This document shows positions 1,168 through 11,656 of a stretch of 11,656 bases of DNA, piece after piece (the stretch's first letter is position 1; each line of letters starts with the position of its first letter). This DNA is from a virus (lineage: Duplodnaviria > Heunggongvirae > Uroviricota > Caudoviricetes), in the IMG/VR virus record IMGVR_UViG_2778261571_000003; one strand, given 5' to 3'. Position numbers and translations under genes: made by a program. The notes beneath the pieces were generated by a model. The model was given only the letters and a program-made list of their open reading frames with translations, had not been told where the DNA came from and ran no database searches.

Positions 1168-1899
1168 TTACATCATGTCTTTTTCTAAAAAAAATCTTGA
1201 TGAATATTGATGGGGAGGAACACCAAAATACCTTCTGAAAACACTTACAAAATATGACGTGTTTTCATAACCGCATATCTCAGCAACTTTTCCAACAGAA
1301 TATAAATTGTAGCTTAATAACCTTTCCGCCATCACCATTCGCTCTTCAAGAATTAACTTACTAAATGATAAGCCTTCGTGCTTTAATTTTCTTTTTAACA
1401 GACTTTCACTCAGATACAGTCTTGAAGATATATCACAAAGTCTCCATGCTGCAGATATATCCGTGTGAATAATAGCCTTAACTTTACTTCCTAAACTATT
1501 AAGACATCCAAATAAAAAACTTTGCACTATTTTCTCTGAAGATAAGATAGCAAGACATGCAAGTGATATTTGATTTCTAACAAAATCCACAGTTCTGCCA
1601 TCACAATTCAAGCATGCAATCAAGTTCTTTAACAATGAAAAATCTTCACATTCCACCATCAAGTATGCCGGATAAAACCTTCTTACAGAAAAAGGTGAGA
1701 GTGTGTTGCTTTTAAAGAAATCATTAACTGTTTTCTCTTCAACATCTACGATCATTACATGATCTATATTTGATGAAAAAAAATCTTTTAAATTGTAATC
1801 AATGAGAACAGCACTTCCTTTTTTAAACAAAATATCTTCTTTACCAATTCGGACATCAAACGAGTTCAACACCAAAATGATAGAACATATGTATGGCAT
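1168..1899 (-). CDS. AraC-family transcriptional regulator (AppY/EnvY-like, AT-rich)
   Basis: C-terminal AraC-type HTH signature (..VGKVAEICGYENTSYFVSVFRRYFGVPPHQY..). Gene is visibly AT-rich compared with the phage backbone. The track ORF begins at GTG 1908; I prefer ATG 1899 (MPYICSI...) because AGGTGG sits 5-6 nt upstream. Stop TAA at 1170..1168. Confidence 0.85.
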   Translation of the reverse strand: MPYICSIILVLNSFDVRIGKEDILFKKGSAVLIDYNLKDFFSSNIDHVMIVDVEEKTVNDFFKSNTLSPFSVRRFYPAYLMVECEDFSLLKNLIACLNCDGRTVDFVRNQISLACLAILSSEKIVQSFLFGCLNSLGSKVKAIIHTDISAAWRLCDISSRLYLSESLLKRKLKHEGLSFSKLILEERMVMAERLLSYNLYSVGKVAEICGYENTSYFVSVFRRYFGVPPHQYSSRFFLEKDMM

Positions 1900-2250
1900 A
1901 TTATCCACCTGATATCATTGGGGTTACACCAGGTAAGTATAGGTGGAAAATCAATATTCGCCAGTTCAACAATAAGGAAAATTTCATTGCATCACAAGTA
2001 TAAAATTATGTATTTAACTCACAAAGACAAATTATTAAACCAATCCGTTATATTATATATAGCTGCGTGGAATCATAATATTATATATTTTGACTGGCAT
2101 GTTTACCAACTTTAAGTTGCATCTCAATTGTTTCTTCAGCGTAAACAGAGTTTTTATACAAACTGACACTCTGGGTATCATAGTGTAGTTTTTACGATTG
2201 TAAATATCCTGCATGCAGGAACTCATCCTTTTGGATGATATCGCATACAA

Positions 2251-3210
2251 TTAATTTACCATCAGTCTTAGAGCCAGTTCGTCCGGATAGGGATCGAAGT
2301 AATTCTGTGTAAGCAAGTAATCATTAGGATACTCACCCAGATAATGCTTCAGCAGAGTCAACGGCGCAAGAAGAGGTAATGTGCCAGAACGATAGTTAAG
2401 TATAACCTCGCTCAACTCTTTACGCTGGCGTGTACTTAAGTAGTTACTAAAATACCCCTGTATATGCATCAGCACATTCGTGTGATTTTTACGTGATGCA
2501 GGTTTTCTGAGAATCGCCATCAGCTTATCACGATACACCTCAAAGTATGATTCAAGGTCCGCCCACTCGTGTATTGCAGCCACAAATGGTCCCATATCTT
2601 TATAGCCTGCCTGACTATGCGCCAACAACTGAAGCTTATAACGACTATGAAAAGCTAATAACTCTCTTCTTGATAATTTCTCCTTGTAAAGGTGATTGAG
2701 CTCATGCAAAGCAAAAACTCTTTCAACAAAATTCTCACGAAGCACTGGATCATGTAATCGCCCATCCTCTTCAACCGGTAGCCAGGAAAACTTTTCCATC
2801 AAAGTGCTCGTAAATAGTCCCACTCCATCTTTACGACCTCGATTACCATTTTCATCATAGACACGCACGCGCTCCATGCCACAGCTGGGAGATTTAGCAC
2901 AAACCACAAACCCCGATACATCCTTTAATTTGTCCATATAAGAACGACTAAACTCTGTCATTCTCTCTGTCACATCCTCATTCTGGTCGTGGCTGAAACA
3001 CATCCGTATATTTCCTTGCGTCGAGCGCACAAGACGTAGAGCAGGACGCGGAACTGGCAGCCCTATAGCCATTTCCGGACATACTGGTCTGAATGTTACC
3101 CATTCCACTAATTTGTCCATTAAAAAGTCAGCTCTTTTGTGACCACCATCAAAACGAACAGCAGAACCGGCCAAACAACCGCTGATTCCAATCACAGGTT
3201 TTTTTATCAT
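2251..3210 (-). CDS. DUF523/DUF1722 two-domain protein (YbgA/TudS-like family)
   Basis: 319-aa ORF. N-terminal region (PVIGISGCLAGSAVRFDGG...VCPEMAIGLPVPR...) resembles the Cys-containing DUF523 core; the C-terminal half resembles DUF1722. RBS GGGGGAG before ATG at 3210. Family assignment is from memory, not a search. Confidence 0.7.
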   Translation of the reverse strand: MIKKPVIGISGCLAGSAVRFDGGHKRADFLMDKLVEWVTFRPVCPEMAIGLPVPRPALRLVRSTQGNIRMCFSHDQNEDVTERMTEFSRSYMDKLKDVSGFVVCAKSPSCGMERVRVYDENGNRGRKDGVGLFTSTLMEKFSWLPVEEDGRLHDPVLRENFVERVFALHELNHLYKEKLSRRELLAFHSRYKLQLLAHSQAGYKDMGPFVAAIHEWADLESYFEVYRDKLMAILRKPASRKNHTNVLMHIQGYFSNYLSTRQRKELSEVILNYRSGTLPLLAPLTLLKHYLGEYPNDYLLTQNYFDPYPDELALRLMVN

Positions 3211-3402
3211 ATTCTCCCCCTTGACTAATTCATTAACACATAAACTGTGTAGTGCACGGAATAAATTGCCTTTCTGGCGTCATCACTGACAATTTTTCTG
3301 TTATGGACTATTCCTAATATAGTATGAAAGTTCTTTAAGTGATCGGTCGTAATCATCTATCTTTCATACTTACTCTCAACTATCAAAAGTACAGGATTTA
3401 TT

Positions 3403-3927
3403 ATGAAGTTATGGCCTGTGTTGACTGGCATTGCACTCTCTTTCACTCTTATAGCATGTAAGGCCCCGACACCACCTAAAGGTGTGCAGCCGATTACAAA
3501 TTTTGACGCCAACCGCTACCTCGGAAAATGGTATGAAATAGCTCGCCTCGAGAACCGGTTCGAACGTGGTCTGGAACAGGTCAGCGCTACTTATGGAAAA
3601 CGGAACGACGGAGGGATTCGTGTACTTAACCGTGGATACGATCCAACGAAAAATAAATGGAGCGAGAGCGAAGGTAAAGCATACTTTACTGGAGATACTA
3701 AAACTGCAGCATTGAAGGTTTCGTTTTTTGGCCCCTTCTATGGTGGCTATAATGTAATCAAACTGGATGATGAGTATAAGTATGCTCTTGTCAGTGGTCC
3801 GAACAGAGAATACCTATGGATTCTGGCAAGGACCCCAACTATTCCAGATAAAGTAAAAGCAGACTATGTGCGAACCGCTCAAAAGTTGGGATTCAATGTC
3901 AATGAATTATTATGGGTTAAACAATAA
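3403..3927 (+). CDS. blc: Outer-membrane lipoprotein Blc (bacterial lipocalin) homologue
   Basis: 174-aa ORF with signal peptide and lipobox (..FTLIAC|KAPTPP). Lipocalin signature recalled from E. coli Blc: NFDANRYLGKWYEIARLENRFERG, GKAYFTG, LKVSFFGPFYGGYNVI, YLWILARTP. Only gene of the operon region on the plus strand; clearly diverged from the E. coli chromosomal Blc as I recall it. Confidence 0.88.
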   Translation: MKLWPVLTGIALSFTLIACKAPTPPKGVQPITNFDANRYLGKWYEIARLENRFERGLEQVSATYGKRNDGGIRVLNRGYDPTKNKWSESEGKAYFTGDTKTAALKVSFFGPFYGGYNVIKLDDEYKYALVSGPNREYLWILARTPTIPDKVKADYVRTAQKLGFNVNELLWVKQ

Positions 3928-5950: not shown

Positions 5951-6156
5951 GCTTCACCTCCGCAGAGATCAAACGCTGGATGCAAAATATCGCAGGTGCA
6001 TTTCTGCATCTGTGAATGGAGAAGAGAGGTTGGATTGTATGTGCGCATAAACGTCCCCGTTTAGCGCAGAAGTCACCGGAGTTGTTCAGGCTCCGATTAC
6101 TTAATTATGGCAAGTTGATTATCGCAAATCAAAGGTTTTAATTGTGCTTTATTCTT

Positions 6157-6357
6157 TCAAGCGTTTCCTTCATACCAAAGCCTATAAAGTTTTTCTTCTT
6201 CGTTTGGGTTAATAGGCTCACCATGTTTTAATTTTTCAGTGTACAAAATTGTTGAACAAATCGCGGAAGTTAATCCAGTGATCGCCATCTGCCGCAGATC
6301 GGATTTTTGTGTCCCCCTCAACAGACGATCTCCCATCCATGTAATAATTGTATCCAT
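6157..6357 (-). CDS. Hypothetical small protein (66 aa), no recognised family
   Basis: ORF MDTIITWMGDRLLRGTQKSDLRQMAITGLTSAICSTILYTEKLKHGEPINPNEEEKLYRLWYEGNA with only a weak SD (AAGGG, ~9 nt spacing). Co-oriented with the operon and downstream of the ORF-free stretch. Coding status uncertain. Confidence 0.35.
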   Translation of the reverse strand: MDTIITWMGDRLLRGTQKSDLRQMAITGLTSAICSTILYTEKLKHGEPINPNEEEKLYRLWYEGNA

Positions 6358-6940
6358 GCTTCAGCCCTTCTTAGTAAATAGTGTGTAGGGCGACTGAAGG
6401 ACCGAGTTTATGCTTTTTCGCATTGCTTTCAGTTAGTAGACCGGTATAGCACCGGAAACAATCCTACGGCAAATTGGTTGTCTGACCTCTCGGTTTTTCG
6501 TGCATTAACCGATACCCACTACAGTCTCGGCGAAAGCTGCACACCCCCAAGGTGTACTGGTAGCACTCGGCACAGCCTAGCGCGCCACTTTCTCCTCACT
6601 ATCCAGTCTAATTTTATCCCCTAGTCAGACACTCAGATGTAGTGCTCAGCAGCGGCATGCGGGGGAATACAAAAACTCGGACAAAATTGGGCCCTCCTTT
6701 TTGAATCACTCGCGGGGATGTAGTTATTAATACATGGGAAAAGATCTGTTTTCAAATCCAACATTATATGGTTTCAATACCACGGGGTGGCTATGTGTTT
6801 CTCATTATTATTTACAATCTACTGTAATCGCTCCGAACGCAAATGCGTCAATACTCGAATCAACTGATCATCCTGCCACGACTGAAATCTCAAATAGGCC
6901 GTTTCTCAAGTAAGAGATTTTGAATGCATTATTGGCTACT

Positions 6941-6986: not shown

Positions 6987-7481
6987 TCATTTCCAATTGC
7001 AAGACTGTGAAATTTTTTCCACAACCTTATCAATCTCAGACAAGTCAAACTCAACTACTTGCATAGTTGATCCATAAGGTTCAAACCCAAAAATAGCTTT
7101 TTTATGCTTAGCCAAGGTCTTTATAAATTGTATTGGTTGTGGAGCAAATGCAGAATCACCGCCTTCCCCACCTCCCCAAACACTCTTGACCGGCTTTCCG
7201 CCATCTAACCGCACTGTAATTCTTGGGTTGTCCGAACCCATATAATCATTGAATGATAAATAGGCATCTGTTTTGTTATCACTACAACGCAACACCAGTG
7301 AAGTTGCACGATCAGTACCTGCTTTGTTATATGAATCTGGTGATAAATTAAGAGCCACAAAGTCAGTCTGGTCAGTCATTTTATTTATCTCAGACTTTGT
7401 TATCCACGGCCCTAACTTCTCTACACCAGCATTTGCTGTAAACGAGGCACTTATAACAAAGGCTAAAATAAATTTTCTCAT
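6987..7481 (-). CDS. Secreted/periplasmic protein of unknown function (cargo gene)
   Basis: 164-aa ORF with a classical signal peptide (MRKFILAFVISASFTANA|GVEK...). Strong RBS AAGGAG 8 nt before ATG 7481. AT-rich relative to neighbours. No family recognised; no counterpart at this position in lambda. Confidence 0.7.
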   Translation of the reverse strand: MRKFILAFVISASFTANAGVEKLGPWITKSEINKMTDQTDFVALNLSPDSYNKAGTDRATSLVLRCSDNKTDAYLSFNDYMGSDNPRITVRLDGGKPVKSVWGGGEGGDSAFAPQPIQFIKTLAKHKKAIFGFEPYGSTMQVVEFDLSEIDKVVEKISQSCNWK

Positions 7482-7627: not shown

Positions 7628-7801
7628 TTAAACAAACGTTCGCCAGACCTTACCATCAATGACCAGGATTCCTGCCCGCGTCATTTTTGCCGCAGCCTTA
7701 TTTATGCTGGTTAATGTCACACCTGTTGTCGCAGCAACGTCCGGCGCACAGAAGCTCTTGTGCGTCTCCAGATAATGAATAATTGCCTCTTTGCCCGTCA
7801 T
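7628..7801 (-). CDS. ren: Ren-like protein, truncated (57 aa; lambda Ren is longer)
   Basis: Not in the ORF track. Hand translation from ATG 7801: MTGKEAIIHYLETHKSFCAPDVAATTGVTLTSINKAAAKMTRAGILVIDGKVWRTFV*, which matches the recalled N-terminal half of lambda Ren up to ..KVWRT and then stops (TAA 7630..7628). ATG overlaps the P stop (ATGA). Confidence 0.6.
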   Translation of the reverse strand: MTGKEAIIHYLETHKSFCAPDVAATTGVTLTSINKAAAKMTRAGILVIDGKVWRTFV

Positions 7802-10120: not shown

Positions 10121-10351
10121 TTAAGCTGCGTTCTTTTCAGTGTGTGGAAACAACTTCGGAAGATCCGGGCGAATCTGGTATGCCTTCACTACTCCACCAG
10201 TAGCCGTAACAATGCTGCCGACATGTTCAGGGGATACCTTTGCTTTGTTGTGAAGCCACTTATAGACGGCCTGCTGTGAAACTTCGCAGGCAGCGCCTAG
10301 TTTCTTTTGTGAACCAACGATATTGATCGCTGTTTTGATGGCTGGGTTCAT
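10121..10351 (-). CDS. Cro-like HTH regulator (YdaS family)
   Basis: 76-aa ORF divergent from the repressor gene. HTH-like segment (..GSQKKLGAACEVSQQAVYKWLHNK..) and overall similarity to Rac YdaS as recalled. RBS GGAGG before ATG 10351; stop TAA 10123..10121. Confidence 0.75.
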   Translation of the reverse strand: MNPAIKTAINIVGSQKKLGAACEVSQQAVYKWLHNKAKVSPEHVGSIVTATGGVVKAYQIRPDLPKLFPHTEKNAA

Positions 10352-10455
10352 AACAACCTCCGTGGTTAATTTGAATCAAGATTAAAACTATGGTTGTTTT
10401 TAGTCAACAACCATTTTCGTTTGATGAAATAAAACCTTGGTTGTACATTTGGACT
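10352..10455. promoter_or_regulatory. Divergent operator/promoter region between the Cro-like and cI genes
   Basis: Perfect 9-bp inverted repeat ATGGTTGTT-7bp-AACAACCAT at 10390-10414. Half-site GGTTGT/ACAACC recurs at 10353-10358, 10392-10397, 10407-10412 and 10439-10444. Candidate rightward promoter on the minus strand: -35 TTGACT (10402-10407) overlapping the palindrome, 17-bp spacer, -10 TAATCT (10379-10384). Candidate cI promoter: TTGATG (10421-10426), 17-bp spacer, TACATT (10444-10449), ending 6 nt before the cI ATG with no SD, suggesting a leaderless mRNA. Confidence 0.5.
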
Positions 10456-11145
10456 ATGAAAACAACACTCTCAGAAAGACTTAAAGAAGCCAGATTAGCG
10501 CGAGGCCTTACACAAAAGGCGCTTGGGGATTTGGTCGGGGTTAGCCAAGCAGCTATTCAGAAAATCGAAACAGGGAAAGCTAACCAAACAACTAAAATCG
10601 TGGAGATCGCGAACGCTTTGGGTGTGCGCGCAGAATGGTTATCTTCTGGCGTTGGAAATATGTCAGACAGTACAGTGCAACCAATACAAACAACTGTCAG
10701 CCATTCCAAATACTTTAAGATTGACGTTCTTGATATCGAAGTGAGTGCCGGGCCGGGAGTCATCAACCGTGAGTTTGTAGAAGTTCTACGTTCGGTTGAG
10801 TATTCGTTTGACGATGCTCGTCACATGTTCGATGGCAGGAAGGCGGAAAATATCCGTATCATTAACGTACGCGGTGACAGCATGTCAGGAACGATCGAAC
10901 CAGGTGATCTGCTGTTCGTTGATATCACTGTTAAATCTTTCGACGGTGATGGTATCTATGCGTTTCTGTACGACGACACAGCCCATGTAAAGCGCCTGCA
11001 AATGATGAAGGATAAACTGCTGGTTATCTCTGATAACAAGAGCTACTCACCGTGGGACCCAATCGAGAAAGACGAGATGAACCGGGTATTCATCTTCGGG
11101 AAAGTCATCGGGAGCATGCCGCAGACGTATAGGAAGCATGGATAA
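10456..11145 (+). CDS. cI: CI-type prophage repressor (XRE-family HTH + LexA-like S24 peptidase domain)
   Basis: From ATG 10456: MKTTLSERLKEARLARGLTQKALGDLVGVSQAAIQKIETGK.. (HTH), with a C-terminal autocleavage domain carrying the Ser/Lys dyad context (..VRGDSMSGTIEPGDLLFVD.. and ..AHVKRLQ..). Divergent from the Cro-like gene. The track start at 10390 is an extension that would begin inside the operator palindrome. Confidence 0.9.
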   Translation: MKTTLSERLKEARLARGLTQKALGDLVGVSQAAIQKIETGKANQTTKIVEIANALGVRAEWLSSGVGNMSDSTVQPIQTTVSHSKYFKIDVLDIEVSAGPGVINREFVEVLRSVEYSFDDARHMFDGRKAENIRIINVRGDSMSGTIEPGDLLFVDITVKSFDGDGIYAFLYDDTAHVKRLQMMKDKLLVISDNKSYSPWDPIEKDEMNRVFIFGKVIGSMPQTYRKHG

Positions 11146-11240
11146 TTCGACATAAATTCAACAAGTTAACTTTGGCTTCAAAAAAGCATCGATAACATTG
11201 CATTATATTTTTCCTTTTGTCTAACTTAAAAGGATGAACA

Positions 11241-11494
11241 ATGGAAGAACGTGGGAATTACCTAATAGCCCCCCTAGAAGTAATTGGTTCTGGCGGTTTT
11301 GGCCTTGTAGAAAAAATAAGGTTATATAACTCACAAAGAAAAATTTGTGGTCTATATGCCAGAAAAATTTTACGACCTGATGCAACAGATCCTGAACTCT
11401 TTACCAGATTTGAACGAGAAGTAAGATATCAAACTGAATGCCTGCATACTAATATTGTCCAAATATTCATATGCCACTTACAGAATGCTCAGCC
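11241..11494 (+). pseudogene. Hanks-type protein kinase gene, N-terminal ~84 codons only, interrupted by IS10
   Basis: MEERGNYLIAPLEVIGSGGFGLVEKIRLYNSQRKICGLYARKILRPDATDPELFTRFEREVRYQ... shows the glycine-rich loop G-S-G-G-F-G-L-V, a beta3 lysine (YARK) and an alphaC glutamate (FEREV). The ORF ends at a stop supplied by the first bases of IS10 (cTGAtg at 11496-11498). RBS AAAAGGA before ATG 11241. Confidence 0.7.
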
Positions 11495-11656
11495 CTGATG
11501 AATCCCCTAATGATTTTGGTAAAAATCATTAAGTTAAGGTGGATACACATCTTGTCATATGATCAAATGGTTTCGCGAAAAATCAATAATCAGACAACAA
11601 GATGTGCGAACTCGATATTTTACACGACTCTCTTTACCAATTCTGCCCCGAATTAC
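11495..11656 (+). mobile_element. IS10 (Tn10-type IS4-family element), outside end; continues beyond window end
   Basis: From 11495 the sequence CTGATGAATCCCCTAATGATTTTGGTAAAAATCATTAAGTTAAGGTGGATACACATCTTGTCATATGATCAAATGG... matches the IS10 outside end as I recall it, including the terminal repeat, the IHF-site region and the Dam GATC (11561-11564) in the transposase promoter region. The 9 bp just outside (TGCTCAGCC, 11486-11494) fit the IS10 target consensus NGCTNAGCN. Confidence 0.85.
11602..11656 (+). CDS. IS10 transposase, first 18 codons (continues beyond window)
   Basis: ATG at 11602 followed by MCELDILHDSLYQFCPEL, the recalled N-terminus of IS10/Tn10 transposase. Confidence 0.8.
   Translation, partial: MCELDILHDSLYQFCPEL

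Follow-up and report, generated by a model that had tools for sequence, protein, structure and literature searches.

An IS10-broken kinase gene beside the cI repressor gene of a lambdoid prophage, and its intact kinase/PP2C counterpart as a candidate phage-exclusion cassette

Cell-killing prophage kinases are known from few systems (933W Stk, KKP, Stk2 and PD-T4-6), and the way in which they sense an infecting phage is largely open. Rex of phage lambda is an exclusion module of another kind, made up of a sensor and a membrane ion channel. The eukaryote-like tyrosine kinase Stk of phage 933W is described in two reports (PMC3564112, PMC3681748) as cotranscribed with cI and as aborting superinfection by HK97. 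In KKP (PfkA/PfkB/PfpC), which is carried by Pf6 and by P2-, P4- and Mu-like prophages, the kinases work as toxin and a PP2C phosphatase as antitoxin, and inhibition of the phosphatase by Gp59 of phage T4 leads to abortive infection; the system is defined as a PP2C gene followed by two kinase genes of 900-1300 bp, fused to CSD and FHA domains, and it also phosphorylates MvaU, by which it controls Pf lysogeny (Guo et al. 2024, PMC11341870). The present analysis deals with contig NLNA01000062.1 of the draft assembly GCA_002229155.1, the whole of which (11,656 bp) is referred to below as the window. It belongs to a lambdoid prophage, and the first gene after its cI repressor gene is the 5' part of a Hanks-type kinase gene that has been broken by the insertion sequence IS10. 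Uninterrupted copies in other genomes are followed by a PP2C phosphatase gene, and for this intact cassette a phosphorylation-based phage exclusion, with the kinase as toxin and the phosphatase as antidote after the manner of KKP and Stk, is the function to which we give slightly better than even chances.

The remnant and its immediate surroundings consist of the following features:

11146..11240, plus strand: cI-kinase spacer, 95 nt from the cI stop codon to the kinase ATG, the left edge of the AT-rich cargo
11241..11494, plus strand: remnant of a Hanks-type Ser/Thr kinase gene, comprising codons 1-84 out of 241 and the first two bases of codon 85
11486..11494, no strand assigned: IS10 target 9-mer TGCTCAGCC, read at the junction, a perfect match to the hotspot consensus NGCTNAGCN
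11495..11656, plus strand: first 162 nt (outside end) of IS10, 162/162 identical to the annotated IS10 of phage CL707 (EF120459)

The open reading frame (ORF) at 11241-11498 on the plus strand, with an AAGGA ribosome-binding site at 11230-11234, encodes a product of 85 amino acids, MEERGNYLIAPLEVIGSGGFGLVEKIRLYNSQRKICGLYARKILRPDATDPELFTRFEREVRYQTECLHTNIVQIFICHLQNAQP*. An earlier reading of this DNA, made from its letters alone and called here the sequence-only reading, had noticed three kinase motifs in the first gene after cI, and all of them are found there: GSGGFGLV at residues 16-23 (nt 11286-11309), YARK at 39-42 (11355-11366) and FEREV at 57-61 (11409-11423). It had let the gene end at 11494, which is indeed the final kinase base before IS10, and had supposed the copy to be inactivated; the reading frame is interrupted by IS10 at 11494/11495. 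The remnant spans only subdomains I-IV, with the glycine loop (G16-V23), Lys42 and Glu60, while the invariant catalytic residues H131, R132, D133, K135, N138, D151, F152 and G153, as located by the family alignment, all lie past the break. Without catalytic loop, DFG motif and the entire C-lobe the window copy cannot be a kinase: it is an IS10-made pseudogene of a member of a Hanks-type kinase family.

The course of the insertion can be read from the junction. The intact allele has ...AATGCTCAGCCTTGG... at this place, so that IS10 must have entered after TGCTCAGCC (11486-11494), a sequence that conforms to the Tn10/IS10 hotspot consensus NGCTNAGCN, reportedly established by Halling and Kleckner in 1982. 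The outside end of the element reads CTGATGAATCCCC... (CTGATGAATCCCCTAATG...) in the window, and it supplies the third base of codon 85 together with a TGA stop, closing the ORF at 11498; thus no foreign residue is added to the product. The transposase ATG is at 11602, nucleotide 108 of the element, and the transposase begins with MCELDILHDSLYQFCPEL. Thousands of IS4-like ISVsa5/IS10 copies in E. coli match the IS segment of the window, and the contig end lies 162 nt into IS10, as short-read assemblies break at repeats. The outside end faces cI, and the promoter pOUT, near nucleotide 115 of the element, fires outward; it could yield an RNA antisense to the kinase remnant and to the 3' end of cI (minus strand, 10456-11494). 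A consensus promoter scan of 10300-11656 did not flag pOUT. IS10 is also present in another lambdoid immunity-region record, that of phage CL707 (L002, EF120459, 3738-5055), where it lies downstream of N.

The sequence-only reading had made its proposal conditional on an intact gene existing elsewhere. Among 5426 complete E. coli genomes there are 15 with such a gene, which is 726 bp long, encodes 241 amino acids and shows an identity of at least 99.8%; in locus L001, where position plus 5145 gives the position in the window, it occupies 6096-6821. Over the length of the window fragment, DNA identity with the 5' end of these full-length genes is 99%. The protein-kinase profile search that had been recommended for the complete ORF gives a match to Pfam Pkinase (PF00069) with an E-value of 3.2e-32 and 112.4 bits, above the gathering threshold of 31.7 bits, and the kinase signatures are complete: G16xG18xxG21, K42, E60, the catalytic loop HRDIKPLN (131-138), the DFG motif (151-153, within SDFG), D194 and R225. 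The sequence-only reading had named a missing catalytic loop or DFG motif in the reconstructed ORF as grounds for refutation, and this objection falls away, both motifs being present. The remnant on its own reaches an E-value of 3.1e-5 and 23.9 bits in the same profile, below the gathering cut-off because it is short, three quarters of the kinase domain being gone. This low score is what could be said for a chance likeness of the 85-residue ORF, in non-coding or unrelated sequence, to a kinase; set against the near-identity to full-length genes with a strong Pkinase match, and against a family of about 58 clusters with invariant catalytic residues, such a coincidence has a negligible probability, and it was rejected on the strength of the full-length alleles and the family conservation. 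The Hanks-type nature of the N-terminus, as first read, is borne out by both the fragment and the complete allele.

The family to which the kinase belongs was delimited by database search. It comprises about 58 clusters of 241-282 amino acids, found at E-values of 1e-46 or lower in Enterobacterales, Xanthomonas and Acinetobacter, and is separated by a clear gap from the generic kinases, which start at 1e-27. When genome contigs were scanned with the family alignment, 2 of the 80 loci (Raoultella and Pseudomonas koreensis) fell within the family, the rest being generic Hanks kinases. In an alignment of 41 members with 40-86% identity, every catalytic residue is invariant, including G18, G21, K42 and E60, and the activation-loop residues T168 and T176 are nearly so. 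An enterobacterial subclade has TPKYFDxxV at residues 176-185, where distant members have GTxxYMAPE; the APE glutamate is lost, while its partner R225 is invariant. Moreover, the whole family is devoid of the alpha-G region, a segment present in both StkP and PknB, and relative to StkP the gap around this helix amounts to about 36 residues.

The AlphaFold2 model of the intact protein has the kinase fold, with a predicted local distance difference test score (pLDDT) of 90.6 and disorder only in the activation loop, and Foldseek aligns it with FGFR2, PknB and further kinase domains at TMq values of about 0.8. The choice between Ser/Thr and Tyr specificity could not be made from the fold search, in which FGFR2, PknB, BRAF and CaMKII score alike. 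The HRDxK loop suggests Ser/Thr specificity, although Stk shows that sequence is not decisive in this matter. The protein is a pared-down catalytic domain of the RD type and lacks any sensor or targeting domain. Two further damaged alleles were observed. In E. coli GCA_052517245.1 (L017, 5001-5609) the kinase gene is frameshifted by a 5-bp CCAAT tandem duplication after codon ~171 and the PP2C gene is intact; in the metagenome contig L018, which is nanopore-polished, a 1-bp deletion lies at the same spot and the PP2C gene is also split, which may be a sequencing error.

The partner of the kinase is a PP2C phosphatase gene of 247 codons (L001, 6818-7558), which overlaps the kinase stop by 4 nt in every intact E. 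coli copy; it is absent from the window itself and could not be seen in the first reading. The product matches Pfam PP2C_2 (PF13672) with an E-value of 5e-12 and the Stp1 type with 1e-31, and the metal-binding motifs NQD, DGVGG, SDG and DD can be read in the translation. Ten family loci were examined for this partner, from E. coli, the phages Flotzy and phiES15 (Cronobacter), Klebsiella, Yersinia, Xanthomonas, Acinetobacter, Raoultella and Pseudomonas koreensis, and in all ten a PP2C homologue (42-100% identity) starts within a few nucleotides of the kinase stop, the overlap in the conserved cassette being 1-4 nt. Phosphatase and kinase also diverge in step, with identities of 42-59% and 40-63%, respectively. 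Kinase and PP2C make up a functional unit of two genes. In addition, the phosphatase aligns to positions 276-519 of the 565 positions of phrog_5650, a PHROG profile of unassigned function (E-value 1e-53); to judge from this alignment, some phage members of that group may be extended at the N-terminus by about 275 residues, conceivably by a fused kinase.

The place of the cassette in the prophage is defined by the repressor region, for which the window contains the following features:

10121..10351, minus strand: Cro-like repressor gene (YdaS-type helix-turn-helix protein, 76 amino acids), Pfam YdaS_toxin E-value 4e-17 and P22_Cro 8e-5, divergent from cI
10382..10425, no strand assigned: oR operator region, containing a 25-nt palindrome at 10390-10414
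10456..11145, plus strand: cI-type prophage repressor gene, 229 amino acids, Pfam HTH_3 E-value 1e-18 and Peptidase_S24 5e-13

The cI ORF, labelled S24 family peptidase in RefSeq, is identical at the nucleotide level (100%) to that of E. coli strain T2. Together, kinase and PP2C genes form an AT-rich cargo of 1.56 kb, with a GC content of 33-36% as against 44-53% in the flanks. The kinase-bearing prophage of strain TB06053 is homologous to prophages of the same backbone as far as the stop codon of cI, and then again from the first base of a strong terminator hairpin onward (CCCGGCCACCGTGCCGGG with a subsequent T-run; L001, 7566-7583). Past the terminator there are operator-like repeats mirroring oR, and then the genes kil, gam, bet and exo; the inverted repeats I1/I2/I9 of L001 (5237-5280 in oR and 7718-7762 in oL) share 19 nt with 95% complementarity. 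The cassette therefore fills the interval from the cI stop to the backbone terminator ahead of oL/pL, the place taken by rexAB in lambda. It had been supposed that the gene lies in the immunity slot for lysogen-expressed functions beside cI, and the two homology breakpoints, with oL-like repeats beyond the second, uphold this.

In other strains the same slot is empty or differently filled: it measures 121 nt in JJ1886 (L006, 4256-4376), holds a gene for a 353-residue hypothetical protein and an ASCH-domain gene in strain 147 (L007, 4256-5756), and a BamE-like lipoprotein gene in strain DAM (L008, 4259-4874). The DNA after cI is thus a sharply bounded cargo hotspot, whose other contents are likewise candidates for lysogen-expressed functions. 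The cI allele of the window is found at full length in 1520 complete genomes and the cassette in 15, which makes the latter a rare optional cargo. Cotranscription of the cassette with cI is to be expected, because promoter and terminator signals are absent between them: a consensus scan of 10300-11656 returned no promoter or terminator match except the oR palindrome, which is weak evidence of absence. A promoter of the cassette's own in the cI-kinase spacer was looked for in the same scan, with the same reservation, and was discarded.

Residence in the repressor operon also suits a regulatory or lysogenic-conversion module, which would tune a host or prophage regulator (e.g. a nucleoid protein) for the benefit of induction or host physiology instead of excluding phages. 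KKP does likewise by phosphorylating MvaU, with control over Pf lysogeny, and a reversible kinase/phosphatase pair fits regulation well. However, the great majority of the genomes with this cI allele dispense with the cassette, which moreover turns up in other phage slots and in variable islands outside prophages, and is therefore not bound to the switch of one particular phage. A regulatory function is in our opinion unlikely, though it is the most credible of the alternatives to exclusion.

The other contexts of the cassette are varied. Phage phiES15 carries it in the interval from Q to the lysis genes and Flotzy in that from Rz to terS, in each case followed by a terminator of its own. In Klebsiella it adjoins a P4-type primase gene and an Imm_superinfect gene, and in Yersinia it belongs to a variable island, where its neighbours encode TIR and STAND NTPase proteins or AAA_15 and DUF3226 proteins. 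Within Yersinia enterocolitica an identical cassette is accompanied by TIR and nSTAND NTPase genes in L011 (7051-9602) and by AAA_15/AAA_21 and DUF3226 genes in L012 and L013 (7100-8952). The Yersinia island has Deam_C/DUF6911 genes upstream and a giant gene with LPD/MuF domains downstream, and has the look of a variable island for defence or conflict. The cassette behaves as mobile cargo with defence-type neighbours, and these neighbours speak for a link with defence.

The phiES15 and Flotzy copies, both in late-transcribed DNA, give some substance to the idea that the kinase serves lytic growth as a host-takeover enzyme, like the gp0.7 kinase of T7, with the phosphatase limiting the damage. 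This is hard to reconcile with the E. coli prophages, where the cassette is part of the leftward cI operon, expressed in the lysogen and shut off on induction; furthermore, each late-region cassette closes with a terminator of its own, in the manner of morons, and contexts in non-phage islands exist. We hold the takeover function to be improbable. Much the same low probability is assigned to a pure addiction module, acting by post-segregational killing with a stable kinase toxin and a labile phosphatase antidote and having no anti-phage role. Overlapping genes with opposed activities do constitute a layout resembling type VII toxin-antitoxin systems, as in KKP, and the cassette is borne on mobile elements, but segregational stabilisation is of little use to an integrated prophage, defence-type genes adjoin the cassette in Yersinia and Klebsiella, and the characterised prophage kinase systems do defend. 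Exclusion agrees better than any of the three functional alternatives with a cassette that is dispensable, occurs in many contexts and is placed in the cI operon.

When the locus is compared with the described systems, resemblance to Stk is mainly one of position. In each case a gene for a Hanks-fold kinase lies between cI and the immunity terminator, within the cI (pRM) operon of a lambdoid prophage, and each is presumably an accessory gene expressed in the lysogen. They share, however, 26% identity over the kinase domain (tblastn E-value 3e-7); Stk has 348 amino acids, a C-terminal extension and a non-RD HFD loop, whereas the present kinase has 241 amino acids and HRD, and Stk has no phosphatase partner. 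Orthology with Stk was rejected on the grounds of identity, loop and length. The sequence-only reading had named stk of 933W as a kinase gene placed directly beside cI. The two reports (PMC3564112, PMC3681748) confirm such a kinase, cotranscribed with cI and aborting infection by HK97, but in the 933W-type phage phi24B stk does not adjoin cI: the gene order is cI-DUF3024-res-stk, stk being the fourth gene.

KKP has in common with the cassette the presence, in one prophage operon, of Hanks kinase and PF13672-type PP2C phosphatase genes. It differs in having two kinases of 300-430 amino acids, fused to CSD and FHA domains and both needed for toxicity, as against one bare kinase of 241 amino acids, and in having the PP2C gene first, whereas here the kinase gene precedes it and the carrier is lambdoid. 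Triplet organization, CSD/FHA fusions and PP2C-first order are all lacking, and membership in KKP was discarded. Nevertheless, since the kinase is one half of a kinase/PP2C cassette, the toxin/antidote logic of KKP offers a closer analogy than Stk, and KKP is the closest mechanistic precedent. PD-T4-6 of E. coli, Stk2 of Staphylococcus and MAD6 (the MADS kinase) have extra sensor or C-terminal regions and no PP2C partner; assignment to any of the three was rejected, the matches being confined to the catalytic domain and the NCBIfam scores lying far below the cut-offs.

The highest curated matches are to the housekeeping Stk1/Stp1 pairs (PknB/PstP, PrkC/PrpC), with E-values of 4e-30 for PknB_PASTA_kin and 1e-31 for Stp1_PP2C_phos. 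In these pairs, too, the genes are adjacent and overlapping, and the PP2C enzyme resets an RD kinase that has autophosphorylated on its activation loop. The scores fall well short of the equivalog cut-offs (105 vs 450 bits and 110 vs 230 bits), the two genes stand in the opposite order, the present kinase has no transmembrane segment or PASTA sensor, and the cassette is sporadic mobile cargo, found in 15 of the 5426 E. coli genomes, not part of a core genome. With lambda rexA-rexB, finally, the cassette shares its map position between cI and the immunity terminator/oL, the presumed cotranscription with cI and the two-gene format, while there is no relation in sequence or mechanism between Rex and the kinase/PP2C pair.

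The proposed mode of action borrows its logic from KKP, with the action of 933W Stk against HK97 as the precedent for a lone kinase. In the lysogen the cassette would be cotranscribed with cI from pRM, and the kinase would activate itself by autophosphorylation of the activation loop, which contains the conserved T168 and T176. Left unchecked, it would phosphorylate proteins of the host, the phage or both, so that growth stops; in healthy lysogens the PP2C enzyme would act as the antidote, continually resetting the kinase. A superinfecting phage would tip this balance, either by inhibition of the phosphatase or by stimulation of the kinase, and the infection would be aborted. In the source strain the system would be off, its toxin-like half being broken, a lesion of a kind that cells could tolerate. 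Kinase lesions have arisen in two independent cases, by IS10 in the window and by the CCAAT duplication in the other E. coli strain with an intact PP2C gene.

In its most specific form the proposal goes beyond exclusion as such. The intact pair may be a previously uncharacterised minimal toxin/antidote system against phages, related to KKP but reduced, with a bare RD kinase devoid of the alpha-G region as effector and with PP2C as a phage-sensing brake, moving as a unit among at least three lambdoid moron slots (after cI, between Q and the lysis genes, and between Rz and terS), the Klebsiella locus with the P4-type primase and chromosomal islands of Gammaproteobacteria. This version is put forward tentatively, its chances being somewhat short of even.

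Several points weigh against the exclusion function. The literature searched contains no description of, or experiment on, this two-gene kinase and PP2C cassette. The PADLOC profile matches of the kinase (PD-T4-6, E-value 1e-34; Stk2, 2e-27; mad6, 5e-39) speak for a link with defence, but carry little weight, since they do not reach beyond the generic kinase domain (aligned profile stretches of 15-205/327, 129-352/500 and 54-249/659). A toxin-like asymmetry between the halves of the cassette cannot be proved from two kinase lesions; a comparison of truncated-kinase with truncated-PP2C alleles was considered for the same purpose and abandoned, the numbers being too small and L018 perhaps a sequencing error. 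Substrate handling by the kinase may be unusual, to judge from the loss of the APE glutamate and the gap at alpha-G, and a lytic-cycle role of the late-region cassettes of phiES15 and Flotzy is conceivable. As for the source strain, exact-sequence look-ups recovered neither the second 9-bp target copy, nor the other IS10 flank, nor the PP2C gene, the contig ending within IS10.

If exclusion by kinase and phosphatase is nonetheless correct, a kinase/PP2C cassette of 1.5 kb with a clean on/off logic would be a far simpler model than KKP. Natural null alleles exist (IS10 and the 5-bp duplication), together with isogenic prophage backbones that carry other cargo in the same slot. The hotspot after cI is useful for mining more lysogen-expressed genes. 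For the source strain the practical consequence is small: its kinase gene is dead, and the contig breaks off in an IS10 repeat. The cassette offers a compact and testable model system rather than a surprise.

The remainder of the window is a lambdoid prophage segment, 95-100% identical in DNA to E. coli prophages, in which lysis genes, Q, nin region, P, O, a YdaT-like gene and the YdaS-type cro gene are read in right-to-left order before cI on the plus strand. Three genes of non-phage appearance separate the Q antiterminator gene from the holin/lysozyme genes (1168-3927); they encode an AraC-family regulator (246 amino acids, minus strand), a 2-thiouracil-desulfurase/DUF1722 protein (319 amino acids, minus strand) and a lipocalin (174 amino acids, plus strand). 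This trio is cargo in the late-operon moron slot, the position of stx in Shiga-toxin phages. At 6987-7481 (minus strand) the nin region contains an ORF of 164 amino acids with a weak VasI match, whose RefSeq relatives are labelled 'type VI secretion system-associated protein TagO', an unusual gene for this region of a lambdoid phage. Finally, an ORF of 57 amino acids at about 7628-7801 (minus strand) occupies the position of ren; in TB06053 the equivalent gene carries the annotation of a ren pseudogene, frameshifted and containing an internal stop.

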